From sequence record ON568341.1: 64,000 nucleotides of DNA; one strand, written 5' to 3'. Positions 5,166-55,365 of this stretch are shown here, in pieces; position 1 is the first letter of the stretch, and the number at the start of each line of letters is the position of its first letter. Source of the stretch: Escherichia phage UE-S1. Below the pieces are notes generated by a model. It ran no database searches, was not told where the DNA came from, and saw only the letters and a program-made list of their open reading frames with translations. The position numbers were made by a program, and so were the translations under genes.

Positions 5166-5861
5166 ATGGTTGAACAATTCAATTTTGGTGGTTATGCTAA
5201 TGGTGAAGTAAGTAACATTTCTATTCCGTATGTAGTTGAAAAAGTTAATGGTTCAGAGCGTACATATGATCTAGCATCTCGTATGATGCAAGACCGTATC
5301 ATTTTCCTTGATACTGATTTCAATGACCAGATGGCACATATCATCAAACAACAATTGGTGTGGTTAGACTCACAAGGTGATTCCCCTATTACATTCTATA
5401 TTAGTTCACCAGGTGGTTCAGTACATGCAGGTTTGGGCATCGCTGATATTGCTAAATCTTGTGTATCACCAATCCGTACTGTAGTAATGGGTTATGCAGC
5501 ATCAATGGGGTGTTATACACAATCTGTTATTGGGACTAAAGGCTTCCGTTTGGGTGGTAAACGTTCCTACTTCATGTGTCACCAAGTAAGTTCTGGTACG
5601 AAAGGTCTAATTACTGACCAGAAAATTTCACTTAAACATTCTGATGAACTGAACACGTTGCTGACGAAAGAAATCGCTGAAGCTGTTGGTGTTTCTCATG
5701 AACAACTACTGAAAGATGCAGACCGTGATTTGTGGTTGAATGCTGAAGAAGCACTCGAATATGGTGAAAAAGGATTTATCGATGGTATTATCCTTGGACC
5801 ACGCAACGAGAAAGGTCAATACCTAGTCAAGCGTCGTGGTGGTGTTGAAGAGTGGGTGTGA
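5166..5861 (+). CDS. clpP: ClpP-family serine peptidase
   Basis: Motifs SSPGGSV, GYAASMG (catalytic Ser), MCHQ (His); extended -10 promoter upstream. Confidence 0.75.
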   Translation: MVEQFNFGGYANGEVSNISIPYVVEKVNGSERTYDLASRMMQDRIIFLDTDFNDQMAHIIKQQLVWLDSQGDSPITFYISSPGGSVHAGLGIADIAKSCVSPIRTVVMGYAASMGCYTQSVIGTKGFRLGGKRSYFMCHQVSSGTKGLITDQKISLKHSDELNTLLTKEIAEAVGVSHEQLLKDADRDLWLNAEEALEYGEKGFIDGIILGPRNEKGQYLVKRRGGVEEWV

Positions 5862-5916
5862 TTTAGTGATGATTACACTTTATACCCACATTGTGTGGTA
5901 TTTCTAAGGAGCAAAA

Positions 5917-6213
5917 ATGACAAAAACTTTAGTTCGTAATAATTCAGCACAAGAGGCTGATGTTCTTGAAGATTCAGAATTCATCACTGTTGCCCTGGAA
6001 CAAATTAGTACTCAAGCATTGGCACTAAAAGATACTACACAGTCAGAAGACCTATTGGTAGGGATGGCTAATATCCTTGAACTAATGCAGGAAGTTCTAG
6101 TAAAGAACAATATTACACCAATTGATGCAGTACAATATGCTGCAAATCTACGAGCAGAATTCGGTTCATTCTGTGATAAGAAATATATCAGTACTGAAGA
6201 GGAAAAAGAATAA
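5917..6213 (+). CDS. hypothetical protein
   Basis: ORF with GGAG RBS. Confidence 0.5.
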   Translation: MTKTLVRNNSAQEADVLEDSEFITVALEQISTQALALKDTTQSEDLLVGMANILELMQEVLVKNNITPIDAVQYAANLRAEFGSFCDKKYISTEEEKE

Positions 6214-6214
6214 T

Positions 6215-6661
6215 ATGTCTAATGCACAACACAAAGAAGGTTATGACGCGTTTAAAAACAAAGTAGTTTTTAACAATGAACAGCTAAAATCACAGCACCC
6301 ACTATTCCGTCAAGGTTATCGTGCTGCACAAGCTGAAGCTATGAAGAAAAACAACGTAACATTCCCAACAACTCTGTATGATATTCCTAAACGTCCATCA
6401 GTGTTTAAAGCAGAATGGACTGACATTATGGCAGCAACTAAACGTCCTCGTTTTGCTAAACTTCACACTGATGAAGGTCGCTGGATGTTGATGGGTATTA
6501 TGAAAGCAGTCGAAAATCAATCACATAAGATTACTCGATATAAAGATGTTATTGCTATGGTTGATAAAGCATTTGATCTTGTTCTACAATATGGTTATGA
6601 CGAAGGTGTTCTAACTATTGCTGATTGTGAGCAATATCAGTACACCCCATATCAAAAATAA
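6215..6661 (+). CDS. hypothetical protein
   Basis: Track ORF 6122-6661 trimmed to internal ATG at 6215 (MSNAQHKEGY) to remove overlap with upstream ORF; terminator follows. Confidence 0.5.
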   Translation: MSNAQHKEGYDAFKNKVVFNNEQLKSQHPLFRQGYRAAQAEAMKKNNVTFPTTLYDIPKRPSVFKAEWTDIMAATKRPRFAKLHTDEGRWMLMGIMKAVENQSHKITRYKDVIAMVDKAFDLVLQYGYDEGVLTIADCEQYQYTPYQK

Positions 6662-6671
6662 TATAACAAAT

Positions 6672-6703
6672 AGGAATCCTAGTATGGGATTCCTATTTTT
6701 ATT
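6672..6703 (+). terminator. intrinsic terminator
   Basis: AGGAATCC / GGATTCCT stem then T-run. Confidence 0.7.
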
Positions 6704-6765
6704 ACTGCACGTCATCTTTTGATATAAATTTGAATACATTGTTGTTTATAATCTAGAGGGACATA

Positions 6766-7290
6766 ATGAAATACACACACCTAAGTATAGATGATACTAA
6801 TATCTGGTTAGATAACATAATCAAGACATTAGAATTAATTAAACTTACATTACAGAAATCAATTGATATTGAAACTAATATTAAACACGAAATATTAAAT
6901 TATTATCACAGAAACAAATATTGTACGTTTTTCTCTAAATTAATTTATGGATTATATGATAGTGAAGATATTTGTATCGGTTACAGTACTGGTATTTGCT
7001 TTACAATTAATGGTTTTATGAATGATTTAAATTTCCGTCTTTCAGAAGAACAGCAAAAGTTTCGTATATTTTGTGAGAATATTATCGATAAAGATGAAAT
7101 ATCATTTGTTATTGAATTAAATAGAACATGGTCTACATATGCAGATAAACCATTTGAAATTAATGAAACAGATGTGTTAAACTATATTCGAGTCATGAAA
7201 ATTCATGATTTGTGTAAAAATGCATTGTTAAGTATTGGAGCTTATAATGAAACATACGACTTGGTTGAAGATAGCAGAAGTAGTTGCTGA
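6766..7290 (+). CDS. hypothetical protein
   Basis: ORF in array; 3' end overlaps cd start. Confidence 0.45.
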   Translation: MKYTHLSIDDTNIWLDNIIKTLELIKLTLQKSIDIETNIKHEILNYYHRNKYCTFFSKLIYGLYDSEDICIGYSTGICFTINGFMNDLNFRLSEEQQKFRIFCENIIDKDEISFVIELNRTWSTYADKPFEINETDVLNYIRVMKIHDLCKNALLSIGAYNETYDLVEDSRSSC

Positions 7291-7726
7291 GGAAAGTAAA
7301 TGTATTTCACAAAAAGTTGGTTGTGTTATTGTTAAAAATAATCGAGTATTGAGTACTGGATATAACGGTACACCATCAAAGCAACCTAACTGTTGTGATG
7401 TTAATAAACATCTCGTAAACAATGGTCAATTTCAAAATTGGATTGATGAAGATGCAAAACACTTACATCACGAGTGGAGCAACATTCATGAGATTCATGC
7501 GGAAATGAATGCATTACTATATAGTTCACCACTAGAACGTCAGGGTGCAACACTTTACACCACACTTCAACCGTGCTATACTTGTTCTAAGTTAATCGCT
7601 GGTAGTGGTATTTCTCGTGTAATTTACGAAAAATCTTATCCTCGCACTCCACCAGAAGCTATTAAAGTACTGGAAGATGCTGGGATTATTGTTAATTGCA
7701 TTTATGATAAGGGTCTTGATAAATGA
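7247..7726 (+). CDS. cd: dCMP deaminase
   Basis: Zinc motifs HAEMNAL and PCYTCSKL; N-terminus aligns with T4 Cd (ESKC..VG.VI.KN.R..STGYNG). Confidence 0.8.
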   Translation: MKHTTWLKIAEVVAEESKCISQKVGCVIVKNNRVLSTGYNGTPSKQPNCCDVNKHLVNNGQFQNWIDEDAKHLHHEWSNIHEIHAEMNALLYSSPLERQGATLYTTLQPCYTCSKLIAGSGISRVIYEKSYPRTPPEAIKVLEDAGIIVNCIYDKGLDK

Positions 7727-7980
7727 CAGTAATGGTGATTATTGGTTTTTTAGTAATATTGTTATTCATTTTTATTTTATCAATGGTTGTCATTGATGAA
7801 CCTAATAGTTCTGTTAGAAATTATGAAGTTCGTTTTTCGGCACAAAACAATAAGTACTATATTGTAAACTGTGTGCATCGTAGTGAGAAAAAGGTAACTG
7901 GTAGGTTTGGATTTACAATTTATTATAAAGATCGAGTAGAAGCTGATATGATTTGTCAGAAACTTAATACAGTAGAATAA
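7723..7980 (+). CDS. small membrane protein
   Basis: Hydrophobic N-terminus IIGFLVILLFIFILSMVVI; bidirectional terminator follows. Confidence 0.45.
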   Translation: MTVMVIIGFLVILLFIFILSMVVIDEPNSSVRNYEVRFSAQNNKYYIVNCVHRSEKKVTGRFGFTIYYKDRVEADMICQKLNTVE

Positions 7981-8007
7981 AAAAAGGAGCCACATGGCTC
8001 CTTTTTT
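7981..8007. terminator. bidirectional intrinsic terminator
   Basis: A5-GGAGCC-ACAT-GGCTCC-T6. Confidence 0.7.
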
Positions 8008-8281
8008 ATGTTTTTACGTAATATGTATAGACAATTATGTAGTTTGATTTTGCGAATCATATACATAGTACAAAAACCTTCAACACTTGCTTCTTCATCT
8101 TTCAATTTAATGAAGAACGTATCATCTCTTAGATTATTAAAATATATAGTTTACAGAAAATAACTTCTCACTATTAATTTTAGCACCTGTAATTTCGATA
8201 CCATCAATAGAAAAAGGTTAATGCAATTATACTTCACGAAGGAAAGTGCATGAAAATTATCATGCACTATATTATTAAAAT

Positions 8282-10183
8282 TTACGCACTGATTGTTACA
8301 GTTGCAGTATCTGTTTTATTACCATCAGCAGTAGCCACTGTAATGACTACAGAACCTTCTTCTAGAGCAGTTACTAATCCCTCATCACTAATAGATACTT
8401 TAGTAGGTTCATCTGCACTATAAGTTACTGATTTGTTAGTTGCGTTAGATGGAAGAACTTCTGGAACTAGTTGAACTGTTTTAGTACCTGATAGTGAAAG
8501 TTCAGTAGTTTTAGGTGTTAAACTAACACTGGATACAGGAACTGGAATATTAACAGTAATAACACCTTGACCTGTTTTACCACTTCCATCAGCAGCAGTT
8601 GCGATAATGTTTGCAGTACCATTAGTTAGTGCAGTTACAATACCAGTACTAGCATCAACTTTTGCTACAGCAGGTTCACTAGAAGACCATGTTACAGATT
8701 TATTAGTTGCGTTAGATGGAAGAACTTCAGCAGCCATTGCTTGAGTTGCTTTAACAGCAGTCAATGTTTTAGTTGCTGGAGTAACATTAATAGATGCTAC
8801 AGGAACTGGAATATTAACAGTTACCACGCAAACTTTAGTAAATCCACCATCAGATGTGGTTGCTGTAATATTTGCAGTACCGTTTGCAACAGCAGTGATT
8901 AACCCAGTTGGACTTACCGTTGCGACACCCTCAGCAGAAGTAGTGTATGAAATATCTTTACGACGAGCGTTATCTGGAATAACAGATGCAGTTAATTGTT
9001 GAGTAGCACCTACCGAAGTTAGGGTTGCGGTCAACGGAGTCATATTAATACCAGTTACTGGGATCGTTACATCAATCACTGATTCAGCAGTTTTAGCACC
9101 ATCATCAGTGGTAACAGTAATAGTTGTAGTACCGTTATCAACCGAAGTTACTAGACCAGTATTACTAACTTTTGCTACGTCTGGATATGAAGAAACATAT
9201 GAAACTGCTTTATTGGATGCAGTTGCAGGAGCAACGGTTGTTTCTAATTGTTTAGTATCACCTAATGTTGAGAATGTATAAGTACTAGGAGTCATAGTGA
9301 CACCAGATACCGGTGTTTTCACAGTGATAGTAGTAGTATCAGTTTTAGCACCATCTTCGGTTGTTGCTGTAATCACCACTGTACCGTTAGCAACACCAGT
9401 TACTAGACCAGAAGTAGGGTTAACGGTTGCTACATCAGGTGTTGCTGAAGACCATGTAACGTTTTTATTAGTTGCATCATCAGGAGATACTGTAGCCGTT
9501 AATTGTTGAGTACCGCCAACGTTAATTGTTGCAGTTTTAGGAGAAACAATAACACCACTAACTGGAGTTGTTACGGTAAATGCACAAACATCGGTGAAAC
9601 CACCATCATGAGTAGTAACTGTTACATTTGCATTACCATTAGCACGGGCAATTGCTAAACCAGTTTCAGCATCAACTTCAACTATTGTTGGAGCAGAGGA
9701 ACTATAACTTACTGTTTTATCATTTGCATAATCTGGATCAATTGTAGCTGATAGCTGTTGTGTACTACCAACTTTAAGTGCTACAACTTTAGGTGAAATA
9801 ATAACACCATCAACTGGAGTAGTATAATCACGTTTAACCACACGACCATTGTTCAATTTAATAATACGACCCATATAAAGAGTAGTATATCCCTTACTAA
9901 TCCCATCATCTACATAAATCATGAATGAATTGTCTTGAACCATATTAATTGCGTCTACTGGTTTAACGGAATTTGGAATGTCGATACCACGGGTATCATA
10001 CCAACACATGGAAACTTTGTAATAGATATCACCATTATCATTTATGAGATCATAAACGTTACTGGAACGTTGACGGTTAATATATAAAGTTTCGGTTAAC
10101 ACCTTACCATCGATTTTAGCGACAGAAACTTTAATACCACCAATACCAAATGGCAATTTACCTTCACTAGATATTGCTTTCAT
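8282..10183 (-). CDS. Ig-like (Big_2-type) repeat protein, possible virion decoration protein
   Basis: Only convincing - strand gene; ~150-aa N-terminal domain then about six ~80-aa repeats (VTVTTHDGGFTDVCAFTVT, ITATTEDGAKTDTTTITV, ITVTTDDGAKTAESVIDV); AAGGAAAG RBS. Confidence 0.75.
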   Translation of the reverse strand: MKAISSEGKLPFGIGGIKVSVAKIDGKVLTETLYINRQRSSNVYDLINDNGDIYYKVSMCWYDTRGIDIPNSVKPVDAINMVQDNSFMIYVDDGISKGYTTLYMGRIIKLNNGRVVKRDYTTPVDGVIISPKVVALKVGSTQQLSATIDPDYANDKTVSYSSSAPTIVEVDAETGLAIARANGNANVTVTTHDGGFTDVCAFTVTTPVSGVIVSPKTATINVGGTQQLTATVSPDDATNKNVTWSSATPDVATVNPTSGLVTGVANGTVVITATTEDGAKTDTTTITVKTPVSGVTMTPSTYTFSTLGDTKQLETTVAPATASNKAVSYVSSYPDVAKVSNTGLVTSVDNGTTTITVTTDDGAKTAESVIDVTIPVTGINMTPLTATLTSVGATQQLTASVIPDNARRKDISYTTSAEGVATVSPTGLITAVANGTANITATTSDGGFTKVCVVTVNIPVPVASINVTPATKTLTAVKATQAMAAEVLPSNATNKSVTWSSSEPAVAKVDASTGIVTALTNGTANIIATAADGSGKTGQGVITVNIPVPVSSVSLTPKTTELSLSGTKTVQLVPEVLPSNATNKSVTYSADEPTKVSISDEGLVTALEEGSVVITVATADGNKTDTATVTISA

Positions 10184-10219
10184 ATACTTTCCTTTATAAA
10201 TTGTATTGTATTGTTATAT

Positions 10220-10227
10220 TATTTATA
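10220..10227 (-). promoter_or_regulatory. T4-late-type TATAAATA box
   Basis: TATAAATA on - strand ~37 nt upstream of the Ig-like gene start. Confidence 0.4.
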
Positions 10228-10251
10228 TTATAACAAAATTATTTTAGTATT

Positions 10252-10276
10252 AAAAAAGGAGTTCTAATGCTCCTTT
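10252..10276 (-). terminator. hairpin with T-run on - strand
   Basis: AGGAG / CTCCT stem, 8-nt loop, A6 on + strand; lies upstream of the - strand gene. Confidence 0.3.
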
Positions 10277-10493
10277 AAAATATAAAGGAACATACTGTGT
10301 AAATCTGGTTTGGTCAGGTTAATCTTTCAGAGAGAAGGAAGTAGTGAATGACATTTTATCATTAAAATCATCTCCTTATCTTTAAAATGGAATTGTAAAC
10401 TGCCTCTTAATATGATACCATAGTTCAAATGGTAAATCAATGAACTTAACAAAAAAAACTTGATACTACAGTCATAATTGTTCAGTTTTGTGC

Positions 10494-10522
10494 TTGACAT
10501 AATTAATCAATTATTGTACTAT
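10494..10522 (+). promoter_or_regulatory. sigma70-like promoter
   Basis: TTGACA - 17 nt - TACTAT in the divergent intergenic region upstream of 10558. Confidence 0.45.
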
Positions 10523-10557
10523 TAATAATGTTCCTTAACTCAAATCCGAGGTAATTA

Positions 10558-11163
10558 ATGAAACGATTATTGAAAGAGATTATACAAACCGTTGTTATAA
10601 TTGCTGCATTAAACTTTCCTGCGGCGGCAGAAGTTTCAAAAAAAGCATCTGTTTTTCTATTAAATGATCATGTTGGGTCAATTGATGGTGAACTAAATGA
10701 TAAAACTGTACAAGATGTGGAGCAGTTGTGGAAAGAAAAAAAATTTAAAATTTTAACAATTACATCACCTGGTGGTGATTTTGATGCTGGTATTAAAATG
10801 GGAAATTTTGTTAGAGACAATGGTATAAATTTAATTGTTTCTAGATATTGCAATTCAGCATGTACTGTGGTATTCTTTAGTGTGCCCCCTGAAAAGCGAT
10901 ATATGACAAATCAATCAGTACTGGGATTACATAACATTTCGATCAAAAGTAACGTTAGAGATAGGGATAATACCTTTGTATCTGTTAGACAATTATCAAC
11001 ATTTACTGAAGAAATGGCAACAAAAGTAGGATTTTTATTTACACTATATTCAGCTAATGGAATTCCACCTAGCGTTCTATATAGAGTTAGTCGTGCACGT
11101 GGTGAAGATGTTGTTATCTTAACAAAAAAAGACCTAATTCATTACGGTTCGGTAAATCCATAA
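10558..11163 (+). CDS. secreted ClpP/S49-fold protein
   Basis: Signal-peptide-like N-terminus (VVIIAALNFPAAAEV); ITSPGGDFDAG and NSACTVV..GLHN pattern parallels the ClpP motifs at 5166. Confidence 0.45.
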   Translation: MKRLLKEIIQTVVIIAALNFPAAAEVSKKASVFLLNDHVGSIDGELNDKTVQDVEQLWKEKKFKILTITSPGGDFDAGIKMGNFVRDNGINLIVSRYCNSACTVVFFSVPPEKRYMTNQSVLGLHNISIKSNVRDRDNTFVSVRQLSTFTEEMATKVGFLFTLYSANGIPPSVLYRVSRARGEDVVILTKKDLIHYGSVNP

Positions 11164-11231
11164 AAATAATTATAATAACAGGATGATTATGTTGTTCTTC
11201 CTTTGTTATTAACTATATCGGAAATATAACT

Positions 11232-11492
11232 ATGACAAACATCCAGAATTTGACGTCTATTATTTTTTATGCTACAGTGGTGATGTATACTATTGTACTT
11301 ATTTTAACAGTTTTTATTTACAAAGATTACAAAAAAGGCTTTATTAATAGCTCAACAATGAAGTTCAATTCTAAATTTGAAGCAATTATATTTTATGTTT
11401 TGACAACATCATATTTGTTGTGTATAATGTTATTAGGGTCATTGATTTATATTTTATATACAACATTATTTGCAATTGGAGCTATTTTATGA
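11232..11492 (+). CDS. small membrane protein
   Basis: Strongly hydrophobic segments; stop overlaps next start (ATGA). Confidence 0.45.
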   Translation: MTNIQNLTSIIFYATVVMYTIVLILTVFIYKDYKKGFINSSTMKFNSKFEAIIFYVLTTSYLLCIMLLGSLIYILYTTLFAIGAIL

Positions 11493-25518: not shown

Positions 25519-25522
25519 TACA

Positions 25523-25547
25523 AAAGCACCCGTCGGGTGCTTTTTTG
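25523..25547 (+). terminator. intrinsic terminator
   Basis: GCACCC / GGGTGC stem then T6. Confidence 0.7.
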
Positions 25548-25554
25548 TTATGTA

Positions 25555-25562
25555 TATAAATA
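25555..25562 (+). promoter_or_regulatory. T4-late-type TATAAATA box
   Basis: Exact TATAAATA ~30 nt upstream of tail fibre ATG, just after the nrdG terminator. Confidence 0.45.
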
Positions 25563-25593: not shown

Positions 25594-28293
25594 ATGATGT
25601 CAAAGAAAATATATGGTGGATTAGATGTCACACATAATGTGACAGTTAATGGAAAAAGAACAATACAAGGTATTAACAAACAAGTGTTTGACGAAAATGG
25701 TAATATGGTGTTGGATACATATTCAAAAAATGAAATGAATGATATCATTGGTATGTTACCAATTTCACATTATGGTTCCATGAACTATCTACCTGCTGGG
25801 GTCGGTGGGGATTTCAATGGTGCATCAGAAAATCAGGCATATCGCAGGAATAAGGTATTATTGGAAAATGATGGAACACTCGTTCTTTTGCGTAGTGGTA
25901 CAAACGGTAGTGTTGAAGGTTTATATTATTCTTATTTGTCTAATGCATTAGCAGTTACTGATATGAGTCGTACAATTAACACAAGTCGTCAATACAAACC
26001 AGGATTCTTCGGTCCAAATCGTGTTGCACTTGGTTTATTTAACACTGATCAAAATATTATAATGGGGAGATATAAAGATATTTCAAACAACACAATTGGT
26101 ACATTCATTTCTATTACTAATGGTACACTTAATGATACATTACACACAGGTTTTTTTGTAAATCAAACTGATATATCACCTGAAGGTGGTGTTGAATATG
26201 CTATGATGGCAGAAGACGGTTCAATATATGTTTTTAATGTAATTAATGAAAATAATAAATTTGAAATAGCCATTGTTAAAGTTGTATTTAATGTGGATAA
26301 TGGTTCTTACACAGCAACCCGCATCACAGGGTGGACTACAAAAACATTTTATAATACTACTTATTCTGGGCAAAATAATATTGTGATAACTAATGCAATG
26401 ACGTCAACTAATATTGCGGATAAGCCTTATGTATTTGTTCCTCCGAATTTGTATGGTATGGGGATTTATATGACATCTATTGATTTATATGTTGCACAAC
26501 AACCAGGAACACAAAATTTTCGTTTCAGGATGAATGGTGACGCTTATTTCGCCATGCCAACATATAGTTCGCGTCCACAACACAATTATAGTTTCACGTT
26601 CGATATGAACTCAAAGCAATGTACATTAGATGCAGGTAACGATATTGGCTCCTTCCAAGCACCGTTGGTTATAACAAATACAGGTTCTGACTTAGTTGCA
26701 TCTGGTAATGTGTTGAATTTAGACCCACTATATGACCACAATGGATATAGAAACATTTATAGTTCATATTTTTATTTAAATTCTGGTGACGTGTTTTGTA
26801 CTGCATGTCCAAACTTAGCAGAGCCACTCGCTATGCAAAAAGCAAAGTTTCCTGTGCAAATAGTATATAACATGTTAAATGTTCGTGCTGTTATATCATC
26901 AAACTTCATAGGTGGTATCGTCCGACCATCATTTGGTTCAGCGGTTGGTTCATATATTAATGGCGTTGAACTACTTCCAGATAACAGTACTAAACAATAT
27001 TCACGAGCATCTGGTTCAGGTGGTTTTAGTCCGTCATATGCAGTTCATAAAAGTACTCCGAATTTTACATTTCAATCGTTATCATTGGGAACAATTCAAG
27101 GTTATGAACCCACCACTGAGCGTAAAAATGTAAGTGAAAATAACAACAATAGAATTTTCATTAGTACTGTGTCTGGGTCAACAGTTACAACTAATGGTGG
27201 TATTTTTATGGTCGGACAACGTTATTCACAATCACTGTCTTTTGATAAAAACTTAAATGGTACAGGTAGTATTAGTGTTTCGCAATCAGTTCTTGATGGG
27301 TTCAGAGACTCTGAATATGCTAAAGTTTTAAGTGATTGGAATTTATCTCCGCAAGCGGGTAAAGATATGACATTGTTTGTACCGCAACAAGCGGATATTC
27401 CAGCATTTGTCATGCTCAGTACAATAACTAATGATTTTAAAAACTACATTAGAATTGCTGAAGTTAATGTAAACACCAGAGTAGGTGAAATCAAATCGAT
27501 AACATTCAAGCGTTTAGTTCTTGAAAATAGATATGGTGATAGTTTCACACCGAATGTTGGCGGTTATATTGCACCATCATCTGTTGGTTTAACAATTTAT
27601 GATGGTGGTTCTTTTTATTTCATTGGCGGTTCAGATCCATTAACACATCCAACAATTGGTAATACAGCAACACACATATTTCGTGCATACGTAAACAAAT
27701 CATCTGCACAATTTGAGAGTTTTATTATTGATGGTATCCATGCGTACTATAATCAAGGCCGTCAATTCACTGCATTACCTGATATTGGATTTGGATATTT
27801 TGATACAATAGACTATGATAACAAAATGATTTTCCGCAAATGTGGAACTACTATTGAAGAATATAATAACTGGAAAGAACAAGGTAATCCAATCAACGTT
27901 GTTTCACAAGATGTTGCACAAGGATTTGTTGTTTATTTTACAGAAGAAACTCCAGTTATTCTTTCTGGTAAATCATTTACCTTACCAGTGTCAAATATTG
28001 ATTTAAGAACAATAAAGCCAAACCCAGCCAATACAACATTTCATGTATATGTTAAGTTAAAACAAGGATTAGTAACTTATCATATAACTACCGATGTTAT
28101 TTCAGAAACTGGGACAATTGCATATAATATATTGTGGATAGGAACAATTAGAACTAACGATATTCAAATTGTATCAATTGATATACAAAAACGTTCACGA
28201 TTGGATATTTTTGGTGCTTCACTTGAAGCGGCAGGGGTTTCGTTCCCAGTCAGCTACGGTCTACCATCACAAACAGGAACCATAAACTGGTAA
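25594..28293 (+). CDS. tail fibre protein (paralogue A, 899 aa)
   Basis: Large Ser/Thr/Asn/Gly-rich protein; paralogous to 28911-31643; conserved C-terminal module ending TGTINW; TATAAATA late-promoter-like box upstream. Confidence 0.65.
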   Translation: MMSKKIYGGLDVTHNVTVNGKRTIQGINKQVFDENGNMVLDTYSKNEMNDIIGMLPISHYGSMNYLPAGVGGDFNGASENQAYRRNKVLLENDGTLVLLRSGTNGSVEGLYYSYLSNALAVTDMSRTINTSRQYKPGFFGPNRVALGLFNTDQNIIMGRYKDISNNTIGTFISITNGTLNDTLHTGFFVNQTDISPEGGVEYAMMAEDGSIYVFNVINENNKFEIAIVKVVFNVDNGSYTATRITGWTTKTFYNTTYSGQNNIVITNAMTSTNIADKPYVFVPPNLYGMGIYMTSIDLYVAQQPGTQNFRFRMNGDAYFAMPTYSSRPQHNYSFTFDMNSKQCTLDAGNDIGSFQAPLVITNTGSDLVASGNVLNLDPLYDHNGYRNIYSSYFYLNSGDVFCTACPNLAEPLAMQKAKFPVQIVYNMLNVRAVISSNFIGGIVRPSFGSAVGSYINGVELLPDNSTKQYSRASGSGGFSPSYAVHKSTPNFTFQSLSLGTIQGYEPTTERKNVSENNNNRIFISTVSGSTVTTNGGIFMVGQRYSQSLSFDKNLNGTGSISVSQSVLDGFRDSEYAKVLSDWNLSPQAGKDMTLFVPQQADIPAFVMLSTITNDFKNYIRIAEVNVNTRVGEIKSITFKRLVLENRYGDSFTPNVGGYIAPSSVGLTIYDGGSFYFIGGSDPLTHPTIGNTATHIFRAYVNKSSAQFESFIIDGIHAYYNQGRQFTALPDIGFGYFDTIDYDNKMIFRKCGTTIEEYNNWKEQGNPINVVSQDVAQGFVVYFTEETPVILSGKSFTLPVSNIDLRTIKPNPANTTFHVYVKLKQGLVTYHITTDVISETGTIAYNILWIGTIRTNDIQIVSIDIQKRSRLDIFGASLEAAGVSFPVSYGLPSQTGTINW

Positions 28294-28304
28294 AGGATTA
28301 TACA

Positions 28305-28892
28305 ATGGCATATAAAATAAGAGCAGATCTTAAAGCAATGGAACAGGTTACAGTACAAGGTAAAAGAACTGGACTTGGTGTGTTAGGTAATAATATGACG
28401 TATTATCCAACAAATTCAGATGGGGAATGTACTTTCCCATCTATTACAAAAGATGATATTGATTTTATTGTAAATGGTTTTCCCATTACACAATATGGTG
28501 AATTATATGATAATGAAAATCTAAATATTACATCATCTGGTAACAAACTTACATTTAATAGAGAGATACCATCATTTATTGGTGGTTATCTATACAAGTT
28601 TCCGGCAGTTTCTGTTTTTGCATCACCAGTTACATCGGGAACACAGACTCAATATGTATATGCAACATTGGTTCTAGGTGAACCAATTTATAAAGTATCT
28701 CCGATACAAATGCAAGAATCTGAAATTATAATGTTTATTGGTACTATTATTGTTGGAACAAGTGGTATTACAAATATAAACATCGATAAGGTGTCAAGAT
28801 TTAGTACGTTTAGACCTAACGTTACACAAAAAGGTTCGTCATTCCCAGTTAGTTCTGGAAAACCATCCGAAACCGGTTCGATTAGTTGGTAA
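28305..28892 (+). CDS. small tail-fibre-associated protein sharing the fibre C-terminal module
   Basis: 195 aa; C-terminus (ITNINIDKVSRFSTFRP..SGKPSETGSISW) homologous to the C-termini of both flanking fibres. Confidence 0.55.
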   Translation: MAYKIRADLKAMEQVTVQGKRTGLGVLGNNMTYYPTNSDGECTFPSITKDDIDFIVNGFPITQYGELYDNENLNITSSGNKLTFNREIPSFIGGYLYKFPAVSVFASPVTSGTQTQYVYATLVLGEPIYKVSPIQMQESEIIMFIGTIIVGTSGITNINIDKVSRFSTFRPNVTQKGSSFPVSSGKPSETGSISW

Positions 28893-28910
28893 ATTAAGGA
28901 AAAGAAAAAA

Positions 28911-31643
28911 ATGTCATCAAAACGAATTATAGGAAGTGCTGAGATCCTTGGAAACTTAGCGATTGGTGGAAAATATGCAATGCGTACATTTAACGGAACT
29001 TCCCCCGATGCAAACACTGGAATAGTTAATTATCCAATATATAATAGGTCGGAAGTACAACGTATTTTAGACATGCTACCAATATCACGTATAGGAGAAA
29101 TGGATTATCTTCCATTAAACGTGAATGGCTCATATGAAGGGGCAACATCAAATTCAGATATATATCGCGTTCAACCGACTATCATTGAAGATGATGGAAC
29201 TGGTGTGGTATTACGTGCAGGTACTAATGGTAGTGAAAAAGGTTTCTATTATTCTTTCATACGAGATTTAAGAAATGTTTCTTCTTTAACTCAAGATATG
29301 GTCATTTCAACCACAAGTAAATATAAACCATCCATTCTCAGTGCTGGGGAAAGTGTTACTAGATTTATTGGTTCTAATGGGTATGAGCTTTTAGTTTCAT
29401 ATACATCGAACTTAAATTATATTTTTACGTTAACAAATGGTACATTCAATGAAACATCCCATATCCATGCTAAATTGGTTGGTACACAATTTAATACGGA
29501 TAAACCATTATATGCACATATAGTTGGGGCAAATATATTCATTTGGTGTAAAGATACAACAGTAACTAATGGTGGCATGGCATATACATTATACACCGTA
29601 TCAAAAAGTGATGTGATTAATGGCACGATGACATCTTTTGCTAAAGTTACAGGATTTTCTGGACAAACAGTTAGAAATACAAGCTATAGTTCATCAAACA
29701 ACATTCGTGTATTTGATAGTTATTTTTCCACAAATTCTGACTCGGACTCTCTATTTGTTATTAACAGTCCCGTGAATAGTGTAGAGTATATTGATTATAA
29801 TGACTATAATATCCAAGCGAATGCCAGTTCTGATAACTCTAGAATACGAGTTACTTTATATATAACACCACGTTTCAGTACACCATTGATTGTATCTCCT
29901 GTATTCGCAACAGGTATAAGTTTTGTTTATACTATTAGCTCAAAATCTATGTCATTGGACGGTAGTGCCAGAGCACCAGTTACAGTATCGTATACTAATA
30001 ATAAGTTTGTGGTTTCTAACCAGTTTGAAATTTCAATGAGTAATTTTACTGGTTCAAAGAACAGTTTATCTTCATTAGGTGATTGTGGCTCAATATGTCA
30101 AACAACAGATGGTCTAGTTTTCACTTCAAAATCCAGATGGGTTTCTGATGAGACATATGGCTTACAACTATATAAAGTTCAAGGTACACCATACGATAGT
30201 TGGGTTGCTAGTTCCCGTAAAGCAAGTGATTTAATAAACGTAAATGTTAAACCAACATACGGTTCGGCTGTAGGTGAAAACTTACTTGGTGTTAGATTCA
30301 TTGATACCAGAAAGATACTTCTTGCATGTTCAAGTACTAGCAATGGTGTAACTTATGGTTATGATAGTACTGTGTATTCTCAAATTGGGGAAAATCCAAC
30401 ACATACATATAATAGTGTTACTACTGGAAAATCTATAGAAGGGTTTGCACCTGAATCAGAACGTAAATATCTAGGTAATAGTTATGATTACAGTGCTATG
30501 ATTTCGTTAATCGCAGAAGACGGTACAGTAAGGTCTTATGGTTCATCATTTATTGAAGGAATTACCAAAGATGCAACTGGGTTACTAGATCCAGTTACAA
30601 TGACATTCTCTGGAAAATATACAATATCTGATGCTACTTTAATGGAGTTAAAACAATCTATCATTACTAGCTCTAAAATTTCTGGTACTAGTACTTCTAG
30701 AATATGCTTTTATTATGTACCTGACACTACATTCTCAAGATCTATGGCAGTCGTTTGTACATACAGCCCAACTAATAACCAAGGGTATGCTATTTTTGCT
30801 GAAGTTGATGTTGTACTTAGTGGTTCTGAAATCACAAGTGCATCAGTATATTCAACTAGATACGAAGTTGAAGATAATGTTTCTGGTATACAAAGCAATG
30901 CAATATTAAAGCGTTGCACGGGAATGACAGTTGCGAAATACACAGGGTTCAATTATCTTGGAATTGATACAATTCACCAGTTCACTGTACCTGGCGATGT
31001 TCATCAAAAAATGATGATAGCTAAAGTTAAAAATGGAGATATTAGTAGTAATCGTTATTTCACAACTTATCATGTTAATGCTAATAATAGCTTTGCTTTC
31101 CAACATGGTGCAATTCCCAATGTTGGGTTTGGGTATTATAACTTCAACATTTCAGATTTACAGACAAAAGCAGTTTTTTCTGTATTTGGTACAACTGAAG
31201 CACAAATGGATGGTTTGATTGCGGGGACTGGAGCAGTGCTGAATAATTATGTCATTGTGTCACAGGACGTTGCACAGGGTTTTAACGTATACTTCACTCG
31301 TGATGTACCAGTGTTTTTGGGTGGAATGTTTGACAGACTACCAGTTCAAAGTATAGATTTGAAAACTATTAAAACTAATCCTGCTAACAGTACTTTTTAT
31401 ATTTACATTCAAATGGATCGCAACACTGGAAAAGCGGCATACGTTATTAGTACTACCCTTCTCGATGAGACATTGACAAATGTTTATATTGGTAATATCA
31501 TCACTGGAAGTACAAGTATCACGTCGATTGATACTGAAAAGGTAACTCGCTTCTTGACCTACCGACCTAGTACCACAAAACGTGGGTCCGCAATACCTGC
31601 CAGTACTGGTGTACCATCTGGGCCTGGCTCCCGTTGGAAATAA
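28911..31643 (+). CDS. tail fibre protein (paralogue B, 910 aa)
   Basis: Shares N-terminal (MLPIS.IGEM.YLP) and C-terminal (SQDVAQGF..TIK.NPAN) blocks with 25594-28293. Confidence 0.65.
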   Translation: MSSKRIIGSAEILGNLAIGGKYAMRTFNGTSPDANTGIVNYPIYNRSEVQRILDMLPISRIGEMDYLPLNVNGSYEGATSNSDIYRVQPTIIEDDGTGVVLRAGTNGSEKGFYYSFIRDLRNVSSLTQDMVISTTSKYKPSILSAGESVTRFIGSNGYELLVSYTSNLNYIFTLTNGTFNETSHIHAKLVGTQFNTDKPLYAHIVGANIFIWCKDTTVTNGGMAYTLYTVSKSDVINGTMTSFAKVTGFSGQTVRNTSYSSSNNIRVFDSYFSTNSDSDSLFVINSPVNSVEYIDYNDYNIQANASSDNSRIRVTLYITPRFSTPLIVSPVFATGISFVYTISSKSMSLDGSARAPVTVSYTNNKFVVSNQFEISMSNFTGSKNSLSSLGDCGSICQTTDGLVFTSKSRWVSDETYGLQLYKVQGTPYDSWVASSRKASDLINVNVKPTYGSAVGENLLGVRFIDTRKILLACSSTSNGVTYGYDSTVYSQIGENPTHTYNSVTTGKSIEGFAPESERKYLGNSYDYSAMISLIAEDGTVRSYGSSFIEGITKDATGLLDPVTMTFSGKYTISDATLMELKQSIITSSKISGTSTSRICFYYVPDTTFSRSMAVVCTYSPTNNQGYAIFAEVDVVLSGSEITSASVYSTRYEVEDNVSGIQSNAILKRCTGMTVAKYTGFNYLGIDTIHQFTVPGDVHQKMMIAKVKNGDISSNRYFTTYHVNANNSFAFQHGAIPNVGFGYYNFNISDLQTKAVFSVFGTTEAQMDGLIAGTGAVLNNYVIVSQDVAQGFNVYFTRDVPVFLGGMFDRLPVQSIDLKTIKTNPANSTFYIYIQMDRNTGKAAYVISTTLLDETLTNVYIGNIITGSTSITSIDTEKVTRFLTYRPSTTKRGSAIPASTGVPSGPGSRWK

Positions 31644-31649
31644 TTTTAA

Positions 31650-31678
31650 AGCTCGTCTATTGACGGGCTTTTCTTTTG
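31650..31678 (+). terminator. intrinsic terminator
   Basis: AGCTCGTC / GACGGGCT stem (one G-U) then T-rich run. Confidence 0.6.
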
Positions 31679-31711: not shown

Positions 31712-32278
31712 ATGGTCAAATCATTACTACCACCACCAAAACGACATAAAATCAAAGAAATGAAAGAACAACGCACATTAAAGATGTACAACAACTTAGT
31801 TAAGTTACTTTGCAAAAGCCCATCACTCAAAGAAGTATTCACAACAGATGATGATCGTAATGCACTTATTGAGATGAAATATATGCTCAGTAAAATGTCC
31901 TTTTACAAATTTGTCAAAGAATACTCAACTGAACCATTCAGTCCTCGTTGGCGAGTCAAACCAAGAGAGTATTTTTTCGGTGGTTCATATACTGATATCA
32001 TTCAAGATACGGTGATAGGCGTAGAGTTCGAGATTGATTATGAGCCTAATGGTGTGGAAAACTGGCAGATTGACAAACATTTACCAAGTGAAGATGAAAT
32101 TTATGTTTATGCAAGAAAACAGACAACCTTCAGTTCAAGAATTGCTCTTAATAATTTAGATTCATTTATTATTTTCTATACACGTGTAGGTGTAGATAAA
32201 ATGGTAACTAAACTCAATGAATTATCATTACAACAAAAACAGATTAATGCATACAAAGACATTACAGATTTATACTAA
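31712..32278 (+). CDS. hypothetical protein, tandem paralogue 1 of 3
   Basis: Shares S.LK....T.DDR..L.E.KY.LSK N-terminal pattern with the next two ORFs. Confidence 0.5.
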   Translation: MVKSLLPPPKRHKIKEMKEQRTLKMYNNLVKLLCKSPSLKEVFTTDDDRNALIEMKYMLSKMSFYKFVKEYSTEPFSPRWRVKPREYFFGGSYTDIIQDTVIGVEFEIDYEPNGVENWQIDKHLPSEDEIYVYARKQTTFSSRIALNNLDSFIIFYTRVGVDKMVTKLNELSLQQKQINAYKDITDLY

Positions 32279-32284
32279 TGAGGA

Positions 32285-32806
32285 TTGGATATGTTTTTTG
32301 GACAGTTAAAAAAACCTAACAGTACTTTAATTTGGCATGAAATCATCTTTAAAATTATATCTAAAAGCTACTCACTAAAAGATATTATCAAAACAGATCA
32401 TGATCGACATGTTCTGTTAGAAGCAAAATATAAATTGAGCAAACACCCGTTACTTTCGTTAATCATTGATTACGTTAATGATTATGAATCCAGTCGTTGG
32501 CAGTGGGAAGACGGAGGTTTATTTCGTGGAAAAACATTCTACGGTGCCGAACGATATGTATTCAGTGATACAGCAAATGATGTTAAGTTTGCTATTAGAA
32601 ACTTTAACTCCAAAGAAAATGATTATCTTGAAAGTGGAGTTAAGGTGTATATAGATAATAATAGCAATGTACTTACATATGACGAATCACTAATTATGTT
32701 ACAAATAATGCGTGGAGTTGAAAGTGTAAGACACAATCTTACTAAGTTGAAAATCCAGCAAAATGATATACATAATAGACAGAAAATTAAGGGTTTATAT
32801 AAATGA
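32285..32806 (+). CDS. hypothetical protein, tandem paralogue 2 of 3
   Basis: YSLKDIIKTDHDRHVLLEAKYKLSK. Confidence 0.5.
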   Translation: MDMFFGQLKKPNSTLIWHEIIFKIISKSYSLKDIIKTDHDRHVLLEAKYKLSKHPLLSLIIDYVNDYESSRWQWEDGGLFRGKTFYGAERYVFSDTANDVKFAIRNFNSKENDYLESGVKVYIDNNSNVLTYDESLIMLQIMRGVESVRHNLTKLKIQQNDIHNRQKIKGLYK

Positions 32807-33312
32807 TTTCATTTTTCAAAAAGAAAGAAAAAGTTGATGAAACTGGATTAGAATCGTTTCTATGGACTCTTATCATTAAAAAAAGTCCATTGATGAAAGA
32901 ATATGCTATCAATGATGCTAATAGAAAAACTATCATTGAATACAAATATGAATTATCAAAATGTGATCCAATTGTTTATCACTTTGCGAAGTACTGTTCT
33001 AACAATTTATCGGATATCACTATTGAACACGAGTCAGTACCAATGAGTTTTCCTTATGGTGATTGGGTAGATACTTTTGATATTTTTGATGGTTCAAATG
33101 GTTTCAGTTTCTTTTACTCGTCAAATAAAGCAAATGTTCGTATTAAAACAGAGATAGGTTGGACACAGCATAGCTCAAATAAAGAAGATTATAATTTACT
33201 AGCTGACGTATACCGAAGTGTGAAGAATTCAAAGGATATTGATGAAAGAATTAAAAAGCAAAATCGTATTTCTTTATCACTTGAAACATACAAGTCAAAG
33301 TATGGTGGTTAA
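32803..33312 (+). CDS. hypothetical protein, tandem paralogue 3 of 3
   Basis: SPLMKEYAINDANRKTIIEYKYELSK. Confidence 0.5.
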   Translation: MISFFKKKEKVDETGLESFLWTLIIKKSPLMKEYAINDANRKTIIEYKYELSKCDPIVYHFAKYCSNNLSDITIEHESVPMSFPYGDWVDTFDIFDGSNGFSFFYSSNKANVRIKTEIGWTQHSSNKEDYNLLADVYRSVKNSKDIDERIKKQNRISLSLETYKSKYGG

Positions 33313-33314
33313 CT

Positions 33315-33716
33315 ATGACTACAGTTGATGATATCTATAGTACTATACGAAATATGAGTACAGATAGAAAAGTATTTGGTGATAAAGAAAAATCTAAGTG
33401 TTATGGTATTGATTCTTTTGATATAATTTCGTATGAGTACAACACGAATGGAAATAGTTCACTGAATATCGTCTGCCCTCGTGACCCAGAAAATAATTTT
33501 ATGTATGTTGAAATTAATAATGATGGGATGTTTTTTACAAAAGTTTTCAAAGGTGGTATTAATTACGAACCTATTGAATGTATGAATGAAGAAACTTTCT
33601 TTCAAGAAGATACAATTATCAATTTAGGTTTTAGTTTTGCGGATTATAAAACATTAGAACATGACTTTAATCGTTATTATAACGGTTTCTTAAAGGAGTT
33701 AACAATTTATCTATGA
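33315..33716 (+). CDS. hypothetical protein
   Basis: ORF in array. Confidence 0.45.
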   Translation: MTTVDDIYSTIRNMSTDRKVFGDKEKSKCYGIDSFDIISYEYNTNGNSSLNIVCPRDPENNFMYVEINNDGMFFTKVFKGGINYEPIECMNEETFFQEDTIINLGFSFADYKTLEHDFNRYYNGFLKELTIYL

Positions 33717-34945
33717 ATAACCAATATGTTGAACAAACAATAGTGAAACACTTGGCTGGGTCACAAGCCTACGGAACCAGTACGCCTGAAAGTGATACTG
33801 ATTATCGTGGTATTTTTCTTGCTAATAAAGAATTTATTCTTACGCCATTCTATAAGGTTAAAGAAGTAGCTGATAAAAATGAAGAAGATACCAAATTCTA
33901 TGAGTTAAATCAGTATTTAAAATTATACACTGAAGCCAACCCTAATATTCTGGAATCACTATGGGTTGAACCAGAACACATTGTAGAAAGTACTGAGATT
34001 TATGACTATCTTCGTTCATTTAACCAAAAACTTCTTAGTTCTAAGATTGCATTTTCATATACTGGATATGCATATAATCAGATTAAGCGTATGACAAATC
34101 ATCACGGTTGGATGGATAAAGAGCGAATTGCTGAAAAACGTTTAAATGAGATTTTAGAAGAACACCCTGTCGATGAGGTTCTTGCGTGGATGTATGATTC
34201 ATTCCCACAATATCTTGTTGAACGTTTAGATACATCTAACTTACATCCATTTAATACTAAAAAGATTGATTTTGAAAAATATATGCGTGATACGTCATTG
34301 CAGTTAGTTTCGAAAAATCCATTAAAGCAATATCATTTTGTAAGATTAGTGCATAACTACACTACTGACAAAATTCTAGATCGTGATTTCAATTTATTGA
34401 ATTTTAATAATGGCTATGAACTAATTCATTACGGAGAAAACATTTTTGCGATTATTAAAAATCCAAATGAAAGCACTATCAACGGTGATGGATCATTGCG
34501 TTATTTTTCTAAAGAGCGTAGTACTGAAGAATTGAAAACTAAACCAGAACTAATTGTCAAATTTAACGAAAAAGAATATCAGGAAAATAGTGAGAATAGA
34601 AAAAGTTATCATAAATGGAAAGAAAATCGTAATGCCAAACGTGCTATTTTAGAATCACAACACGGATACGATTGTAAACATGCTATGCACACAATCCGAC
34701 TTTTGAATAGTGCAGAAGAAGCATTACAAAGTGGAATTATTCAAGTTAAACGACCAGATGCACAAATGTTGATGGATATTCGTAATGGTAAATGGAAGTA
34801 TGAAGAAGTCTTAGAATATTTCGATGATAAAGTACAATACATTCGTGATGTTCTATATAAGAAATCAGTACTTCCCAAAAAACCTAACATCAAGTTAGCA
34901 TCGAAAATTATAATTGATATTCGAGAAATGCAATGGTATAAGTAA
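33713..34945 (+). CDS. pol-beta-superfamily nucleotidyltransferase
   Basis: N-terminal GSQAYGTSTPESDTDYRG matches the NTase-fold signature G[SG]..(9-13)..D.D; 410 aa with uncharacterised C-terminal region. Confidence 0.55.
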   Translation: MNNQYVEQTIVKHLAGSQAYGTSTPESDTDYRGIFLANKEFILTPFYKVKEVADKNEEDTKFYELNQYLKLYTEANPNILESLWVEPEHIVESTEIYDYLRSFNQKLLSSKIAFSYTGYAYNQIKRMTNHHGWMDKERIAEKRLNEILEEHPVDEVLAWMYDSFPQYLVERLDTSNLHPFNTKKIDFEKYMRDTSLQLVSKNPLKQYHFVRLVHNYTTDKILDRDFNLLNFNNGYELIHYGENIFAIIKNPNESTINGDGSLRYFSKERSTEELKTKPELIVKFNEKEYQENSENRKSYHKWKENRNAKRAILESQHGYDCKHAMHTIRLLNSAEEALQSGIIQVKRPDAQMLMDIRNGKWKYEEVLEYFDDKVQYIRDVLYKKSVLPKKPNIKLASKIIIDIREMQWYK

Positions 34946-45617: not shown

Positions 45618-45950
45618 ATGCTAAATCTAAATATTCAAGGCAACGTTGATATCACTCCAGCAATCCAAGATGCTATTTATAATGAAGCAAAAAGTCTGGA
45701 TAAGTACCGTACTTCTTCAGTACTAGACATTGGTGTTCATGTTAAGAAAGAGCATAAAACTCAATATGCTGTAACTTTAACTGCTGGTAGTAAATCAGTA
45801 ACTGCTGATGATGCTGATTTGTATAAAGCAATTGTTGAATCTTTTGATAAGATGGAAACTGTATTCAGTAAAGACAAAAGCATTAAATTACACCGCCGAA
45901 ACCATCCAGAACACCCCGTTCTTGATGATTTGACAGAAAACGAAGAGTAA
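45618..45950 (+). CDS. hypothetical protein
   Basis: AAGGAAGG RBS; terminator follows. Confidence 0.5.
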   Translation: MLNLNIQGNVDITPAIQDAIYNEAKSLDKYRTSSVLDIGVHVKKEHKTQYAVTLTAGSKSVTADDADLYKAIVESFDKMETVFSKDKSIKLHRRNHPEHPVLDDLTENEE

Positions 45951-55268: not shown

Positions 55269-55365
55269 AATATAAACAATAAAGACTTGTCATTTAGATC
55301 CTTCAATAAATAAGATTATACGAATATATAATTCGAACAACCAATTATTTTTGGAGGATTTTAAT

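Follow-up and report, generated by a model that had tools for sequence, protein, structure and literature searches.

To our knowledge, the known receptor-binding proteins (RBPs) built on a shoulder domain (p2, 1358, A-1(L) gp34 and TssK) are all homotrimers. In A-1(L), it is through the shoulder domain of gp34 that the trimeric fibre is attached to the baseplate wedge (PMC10966104). In phiKZ, a jumbo phage, the published atlas describes the gp131-type domain as the fibre attachment at the outer baseplate, reports hetero-hexameric fibres made from tandem paralogues, and places a propeller at the end of gp131 (PMC13250141). Here we examine three adjacent plus-strand genes, called A, S and B, in a window of 64,000 nucleotides (nt) from Escherichia phage UE-S1 (record ON568341.1), the window being the whole stretch of DNA that was analysed. 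UE-S1 is a 121Q/PBECO4-like jumbo myophage, and the DNA of the window is 75-79% identical to that of Asteriusvirus jumbo myophages such as 121Q, PBECO4, phAPEC6 and JNE01. We consider it somewhat probable that the three proteins are subunits of an appendage that the virion uses for host recognition and that is built on a split, shoulder-like scaffold, S being the subunit that carries no payload.

The features of the locus, with lengths in amino acids (aa) or base pairs (bp), are the following.

25522..25544, plus strand: intrinsic terminator after nrdG, upstream boundary of the A-S-B unit (10-bp stem, 5 GC pairs, T-run)
25555..25562, plus strand: TATAAATA, an exact match to the consensus of T4 late promoters, situated 31 nt before the ATG of A
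25594..28293, plus strand: gene A (UES1_449), 899 aa, paralogue type 1, with a putative split scaffold and a predicted propeller payload
25594..25803, plus strand: A residues 1-70, N-terminal scaffold half, helix 45-53 followed by an LPxSxYG motif, common to S and B
25846..27873, plus strand: A residues ~85-760, predicted all-β propeller region (payload), probably two propellers
27880..28203, plus strand: A residues 763-870, shared C-terminal β-sandwich module, predicted to be shoulder-like, its fold assigned from the S model
28204..28290, plus strand: A residues 871-899, conserved C-terminal tail ending ...G.PS.TG.I.W
28305..28892, plus strand: gene S (UES1_450), 195 aa, paralogue type 2, scaffold-only, with N half 1-70, sandwich 71-163 and tail 164-195
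28911..31643, plus strand: gene B, 910 aa, paralogue type 3, with N half 1-70, predicted propeller region ~86-775, C-module ~776-881 (nt 31236-31553) and tail 882-910
31648..31671, plus strand: intrinsic terminator directly after B, downstream boundary of the A-S-B unit (10-bp stem, 5 GC pairs, T-run)

The A and S proteins are 100% identical to the recorded UES1_449 and UES1_450. Counterparts of A, S and B are annotated as hypothetical in nearly every record, and as 'minor tail protein' in a few. The phAPEC6 annotation contains the A orthologue only, although intact S and B orthologues are present there; they lie, unannotated, at 5658-6293 and 6184-9039 of the phAPEC6 locus (L002, from MK817115).

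The three open reading frames (ORFs) of 899, 195 and 910 aa exist as described in the original prediction, which was made from the letters of the window. The N-terminal blocks that it quoted are present in A and B, and so is the shared C-terminal block with its P-S-x-x-G-x-I-x-W tail, the block measuring about 135 aa. S indeed ends with the C-terminal module of the two large proteins, with 34% identity to B over 123 aa (E 7e-20) and 31% to A (E 7e-13). The likeness is not one of low complexity, the residue entropy of the module being 3.85-3.96 bits, and a profile of the module matches only the A, S and B ORFs in the window (E 1e-70, 2e-49 and 3e-22; next about 1). In the tail of A, the invariant residues are G881, S887, G889, P891 and W899.

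Two other statements have to be revised. The central regions of A and B had been called unrelated, with specificity domains swapped between duplicated fibres; they are homologous (A 140-740 with B 140-750, 23% identity over 602 aa, E 2e-15), the alignment scoring 65.9 bits, whereas 100 shuffles gave at most 23.9 bits. Moreover, in pairwise alignment A and B are collinear from end to end (28% identity, E 1e-72), identity being 46-50% at residues 51-100 and 751-850 and 10-28% between them. As far as sequence can tell, the centres have thus diverged and were not swapped. This pattern of conservation, in which both termini are best conserved and the middle is most variable, is unlike that of a classical tail fibre. 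The second statement concerned S, which was held to carry only the shared C-terminal module: S also resembles the N-terminus of A in its residues 1-67 (30% identity, E 3e-6), and a profile of the N-terminal module matches S with E 5.5e-5.

Comparison with Pectobacterium phage CBB accounts for the composition of S. Directly after nrdD/nrdG, CBB carries three full-length tandem paralogues, gp147, gp148 and gp149 (902, 916 and 916 aa); A is orthologous to gp147 (44% identity) and B to gp149 (37%), the gene order being the same in both phages. S corresponds to the two ends of gp148: its residues 1-70 align with gp148 1-70 (37%, E 4e-12) and its residues 84-195 with gp148 803-916 (41%, E 2e-25), which indicates that S is the middle paralogue from which about 720 internal residues were deleted. 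Judged from these alignments, S is the positional orthologue of a full-length third paralogue that lost its payload by internal deletion, and it keeps both scaffold halves, rather than being the module-only protein or chaperone-like add-on first proposed. In a locus of an uncultured phage (L014), it is instead the type 1 gene that is short, while type 2 is full length; this short protein resembles gp147 1-79 at its N-terminus (E 2e-18) and A 775-899 at its C-terminus (E 2e-46). The deletion separating S from CBB gp148 and the one found in L014 imply that the middle has been lost, with both ends kept, on at least two occasions. The length of the short form of S is kept at 190-197 aa down to 39% identity. 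Its ratio of non-synonymous to synonymous substitution rates (dN/dS) is 0.13 at a dS of 0.54, and that of A is 0.115; by these sequence measures S is under purifying selection and functional.

A neighbour-joining tree of the modules shows three orthologous types within the Rak2-like clade, which have diverged to 30-46% identity within the module. B has recombined independently of its neighbours, since A and S have their nearest relative in 121Q (82-85% aa identity), and in B, once the first ~50 residues are passed, the nearest is JNE01 (82% versus 66%). The mosaic locus implies a recombination event near the S/B junction within Asteriusvirus, and mosaicism of this kind is typical of host-range determinants.

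The structure of A was predicted with AlphaFold2 (AF2) on an alignment of 36 sequences. The model is all-β and globular, with a predicted local distance difference test score (pLDDT) of 85.3 and a predicted template modelling score (pTM) of 0.78. No elongated fibrous fold (β-helix, coiled coil or β-spiral shaft) was found in it, and its structural matches are propellers of the lectin, glycosidase or lyase type, with no fibre-shaft matches. In the AF2 monomer, residues 1-26 and 873-899 are disordered, pLDDT being below 50 for the tail (871-899) and 37-69 for residues 1-70, and the C-terminal domain 763-870 is separate (pLDDT 72-85). The region between the two ends contains about 680 residues of four-stranded meanders, which exceeds one such propeller, so that two propellers are likely in A, an estimate drawn from size and secondary structure only; no internal repeat was detected in this region, either by hhalign of its two halves or by self-comparison. 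On the basis of the predicted fold, the propeller region of A and B is likely to be a glycan-binding or glycan-cleaving payload. The idea of duplicated receptor-binding fibres therefore survives in part: A and B are paralogues from a family that is virion-associated and probably receptor-binding, but they are not fibrous, and their centres are neither swapped nor unrelated.

The model of S, whose core has a pLDDT of 84-95, gives the fold of the shared C-terminal module. It is a predicted β-sandwich, and its best solved matches are all 'shoulder' domains, through which phage RBPs and TssK of the type VI secretion system (T6SS) form trimers and attach to a baseplate, including p2 ORF18 (2WZP), the 1358 RBP (4L92), A-1(L) gp34 (8KEC), SPP1 gp22 (2XC8) and TssK (5Y0E/6N38). 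This set of matches also takes in HFTV1 gp42, the Bordetella-phage protein Mtd, a phi812 baseplate protein, IglD and TssK (three structures in all); these have the shoulder domain in common, and the matches after them are to unrelated proteins. The C-module can thus be described as a predicted shoulder-like fold, and it resembles neither a fibre tip nor an intramolecular chaperone. Its position at the C-terminus, its high conservation among diverged proteins and its conserved Ser/Gly-rich tail would suit a chaperone block of the kind known from endosialidase and the K1F/T5 fibres, which is removed by cleavage once the trimer has formed. Considering the likeness to shoulder domains, and given that Pfam finds no Peptidase_S74 (PF13884) match in A, S or B, we hold such a cleaved chaperone to be the least probable of the explanations considered here, and highly improbable in itself.

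The two conserved ends probably belong together. In RAY_18 (420 aa), the LPxSxYG motif runs directly into the sandwich, the match being contiguous with positions 46-195 of the S profile (E 5e-31); Goslar_00028 (169 aa) aligns to positions 59-163 of the same profile (E 7e-13), and the short metagenomic proteins P0074 and P0103 have the same arrangement. The junction of LPxSxYG and sandwich in these four proteins suggests that the two scaffold halves form one unit, which in A and B would be split by the propeller region.

The evidence that this locus serves the virion comes from related phages. The A orthologue of phAPEC6, gp323c, was identified in the virion by mass spectrometry with 4 peptides (PMC7247149). 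Virion mass spectrometry likewise identified the GAP32 homologues of CBB_148 and CBB_149 (PMC5259590, supplement 5), and lysates were found to contain RAY gp18 and Deimos-Minion gp19 (PMC6690015). The papers on UE-S1, fEgEco12 and phAPEC6 contain nothing specific on the A, S and B genes beyond the mass-spectrometry row for gp323c, and the Goslar virion preprint and its supplements make no mention of gp26-28. Furthermore, RAY_18/19 and EL ORF113-115 carry an N-terminal domain of ~250 aa that is homologous to phiKZ gp131/133/134/135 (E 1e-19 to 2e-12). In RaK2, the position after nrdD-nrdG is occupied by the tail-fibre/tailspike cluster ORF525w-534, which suggests that this site is the host-recognition locus of the group. 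By analogy with these phages, the products of A, S and B would be located in the virion of UE-S1 itself.

The A-S-B unit is bracketed by two strong intrinsic terminators, and the gaps between its genes measure 11 and 18 nt. The TATAAATA element upstream of A probably acts as a late promoter. The window contains 3 copies of the element where 13 are expected, a depletion in keeping with a T4-like late promoter in phages of this group. A second copy lies at 10220-10227 on the minus strand, 37 nt upstream of the start of 8282..10183 (minus strand), a lone minus-strand gene of 633 aa encoding an immunoglobulin (Ig)-domain structural or 'major tail'-type protein (phrog_215/341). The third, at 45674-45681 on the minus strand, falls inside a plus-strand gene with no ORF downstream, and is probably there by chance.

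It could be argued that A and B are enzymes foreign to the virion, for instance intracellular or secreted propellers that modify polysaccharides and merely adjoin the nrd genes. They do lie beside genes of nucleotide metabolism and not in the main structural block, and propeller folds resemble those of glycosidases and lyases. The detection of orthologues in virions, the separate terminator-bracketed unit with its late-promoter motif, the synteny with the RaK2 tailspike cluster and the fusion of relatives to a fibre-attachment domain all argue against this proposal, which we regard as very unlikely.

Another proposal concerns S only, which could be a non-structural assembly factor, chaperone or adaptor, that uses its own copy of the module to template the folding or oligomerisation of A and B and would be missing from the mature virion. 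A small gene between two large fibre-like genes occupies the classic position of a Tfa/gp38-type protein, and S has not been detected in any virion proteome. However, the protein was outside the phAPEC6 search database, so that its absence there is uninformative; the GAP32 homologue of CBB_148, which belongs to the full-length S orthologue family, is a virion protein by mass spectrometry. Moreover, S is paralogous to structural proteins, unlike the known fibre chaperones, it has no chaperone match in Pfam or PHROGs, and the short form is of type 1 in L014, which argues for interchangeable structural subunits. An assembly factor thus appears unlikely, if less so than a non-virion enzyme.

In the reading that we favour, the paralogues A, S and B, which arose by ancient duplication, would be transcribed as one late unit. 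Their scaffold would consist of an N-terminal segment of ~65-70 aa (helix and LPxSxYG), a C-terminal shoulder-type β-sandwich of ~95 aa and a conserved tail of ~30 aa ending in Trp. In A and B, a propeller region of ~680 aa would sit between the scaffold halves to bind or cleave surface glycans, and S is this scaffold after deletion of the payload. By analogy with the shoulder domains, the scaffold could serve in docking and oligomerising. We further infer that the three chains may co-assemble, for example into a 1:1:1 heterotrimer with two propeller arms, as opposed to three homo-oligomers; this idea comes from their constant occurrence in tandem, from the retention of the scaffold after payload loss and from the phiKZ precedent.

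Module genes are adjacent and on one strand in every locus examined. Three of them stand in tandem in Rak2-like phages (long-short-long, long-long-long or short-long-long), as well as in RAY-like phages and in locus L023. In EL, two were detected, with ORF116 as a divergent third candidate missed by all profiles; read by eye, the C-terminus of this ORF (8521-11391 of locus L025) looks like a very diverged module (...RRGTAIPT...). Three tandem copies cannot be taken as a universal rule, which is weakened by L018-L022 and Goslar, where two copies are detectable.

The main competing explanation is that A, S and B form three separate homo-oligomers, probably homotrimers, at separate or competing docking sites, S acting as a plug, spacer or adaptor. 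The homotrimeric state of the known shoulder-domain RBPs favours it, and the divergence of the three module types is what independent specialisation would be expected to produce; B was exchanged independently of A and S between Asteriusviruses, and some lineages show two copies only. Against it stand the co-retention of at least two adjacent module genes in every lineage examined, the scaffold always being kept when the payload is lost, and the hetero-oligomeric paralogue fibres of phiKZ, none of which is decisive. We consider separate homotrimers to be a possible but doubtful arrangement, which is still a better candidate than the chaperone, the cleaved chaperone domain or the non-virion enzyme.

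Several observations weigh against a payload-bearing appendage docked through the split scaffold. The known shoulder domain is N-terminal and proximal, and the module of A, S and B is C-terminal; RAY and EL proteins are likely anchored by a different, gp131-like N-terminal domain; and the C-module may thus be a distal point of trimerisation instead of the site of docking. Only two module copies are detectable in L018-L022 and Goslar. No virion proteome lists S among its proteins, the phAPEC6 search database having lacked the S and B orthologues, and the virion detections come from homologues in phAPEC6 and GAP32, not from UE-S1. Finally, no catalytic or sugar-binding motif was identified in A or B, from which the sialidase Asp-box (S-x-D-x-G-x-T-W) and FRIP motifs are absent even though the propeller fold itself is predicted.

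The profile of the module retrieves 601 clusters at 50% identity (E <= 1e-3); the scan of viral contigs was seeded with a narrower module alignment. Protein lengths in the family are bimodal, ~870-1200 aa and ~170-250 aa, with the module C-terminal in both classes, and a few proteins (P0191, P0193) continue with a further domain after it. With tblastn, the family is found in at least 126 phage records, all of them large (>200 kb) among the matches listed, and including Asteriusvirus, CBB/GAP32, Erwinia RAY/Ea35-70, Goslar, PCH45 and EL. Two exact peptide patterns of the long-form module, searched in 185,579 genomes, revealed no bacterial or archaeal relative. Pfam has no family for A, S, B or 16 of their relatives, PHROGs places A, S and B only in families of unknown function (phrog_3573, phrog_26864 and phrog_7449), and sequence and profile searches of the PDB with the three proteins returned nothing meaningful. 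An N-terminal helical region with the motif NPH(G/x)xT(x)xQ(x)G occurs in short and some long members (Goslar L005 3899-4898; the short forms of L018, L020 and L023; P0047-P0049). phiKZ gp131 has the motif as well, at ~300-345, and Goslar gp25 and gp29 contain repeats of it; the motif may be the sign of a common fibre-shaft repeat.

Directly downstream of B, at 31712-33312 on the plus strand, lie three tandem small paralogues of 188, 173 and 169 aa (phrog_18641/phrog_7868), which share motifs such as S.SLK....D.DR..L.E.KY.LSK. This array is followed by a gene of the nucleotidyltransferase family (33713-34945, plus strand, 410 aa, phrog_388). Further along, a 664-aa gene resembling HNH/homing endonucleases (52285-54279, plus strand) is located ~1 kb upstream of the tail sheath gene (55351-58029, plus strand, phrog_10581).

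Coliphages of the 121Q/PBECO4 type are candidates for phage therapy, and their host-recognition proteins are practically without annotation. The present analysis points to a clear modular logic for the A-S-B family, with a constant split scaffold and an optional propeller payload. The model yields an assembly hypothesis that is open to testing, and offers a guide for host-range engineering, in which the propeller region would be swapped and the scaffold kept. Proteins of the family are also candidates for the unmodelled peripheral-baseplate and fibre density in the cryo-electron microscopy (cryo-EM) maps of Goslar and phiKZ. A possible but doubtful further reading is a heterotrimeric RBP complex on the split scaffold, in which evolution adjusts how many propeller arms each complex has (3, 2 or 1) by deleting the payload from single chains while their scaffold is kept, the family (at least 600 clusters at 50% identity) supplying part of that peripheral-baseplate or fibre density in Rak2-like and chimallivirus phages.

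How the three proteins relate to described systems can be stated in some detail. Tfa/gp38-type chaperones have no counterpart in S, which lacks any Pfam or PHROG match to them and is a paralogue and apparent deletion derivative of the large proteins. GH33 sialidase-type enzymes share the propeller fold with A and B, which lack their Asp-box and FRIP motifs. The RBP of Staphylococcus phage phi11 (5EFV) is built on a propeller 'platform' that the A model matches (Foldseek E 7e-4), but this match is weak and generic, with template modelling (TM) scores of 0.14-0.18, and the overall architecture differs. The branched tailspike clusters of RaK2, K64-1 and phiKp24 resemble the A-S-B locus in their position after nrdD-nrdG (in RaK2) and in forming a multi-gene virion set for host recognition, yet their proteins are unrelated to A, S and B, being β-helix tailspikes rather than propellers. 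For CBB_148 and CBB_149, the list given by the CBB authors has no homologue in RaK2 (PMC5259590).

The closest parallels are found in phiKZ and among the shoulder-domain proteins. Like A, S and B, phiKZ gp131, gp133, gp134 and gp135 are tandem jumbo-phage paralogues that share an assembly domain, and a propeller payload (seven-bladed) is carried by gp131. However, A, S and B have no gp131-like N-terminal domain, and their shared element is a split N- and C-terminal scaffold. Homology to phiKZ gp131-135, gp145 and gp146 was considered and set aside: among phiKZ gp129-146, BLASTP gave no match to A, S or B at E <= 0.01, and the profiles of the three proteins gave none at E < 0.04. The shoulder-domain proteins (p2 ORF18, 1358 RBP, A-1(L) gp34, SPP1 gp22 and TssK) resemble the C-module in its predicted β-sandwich fold, without sequence relationship. 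Their shoulder is N-terminal and uninterrupted, and is followed by neck and head, whereas the shoulder-like module of A, S and B is C-terminal and, in A and B, belongs to a scaffold apparently split by an insertion of ~680 aa. Paralogous receptor-binding or fibre proteins of jumbo phages, shoulder-domain RBPs and propeller RBPs are thus kinds already known. The architecture of the split-scaffold family, which has no Pfam model, solved relative or functional annotation, is undescribed in the literature searched, and its new parts are a payload inserted into a scaffold, a shoulder module at the C-terminus, and paralogues that recurrently consist of the scaffold only.

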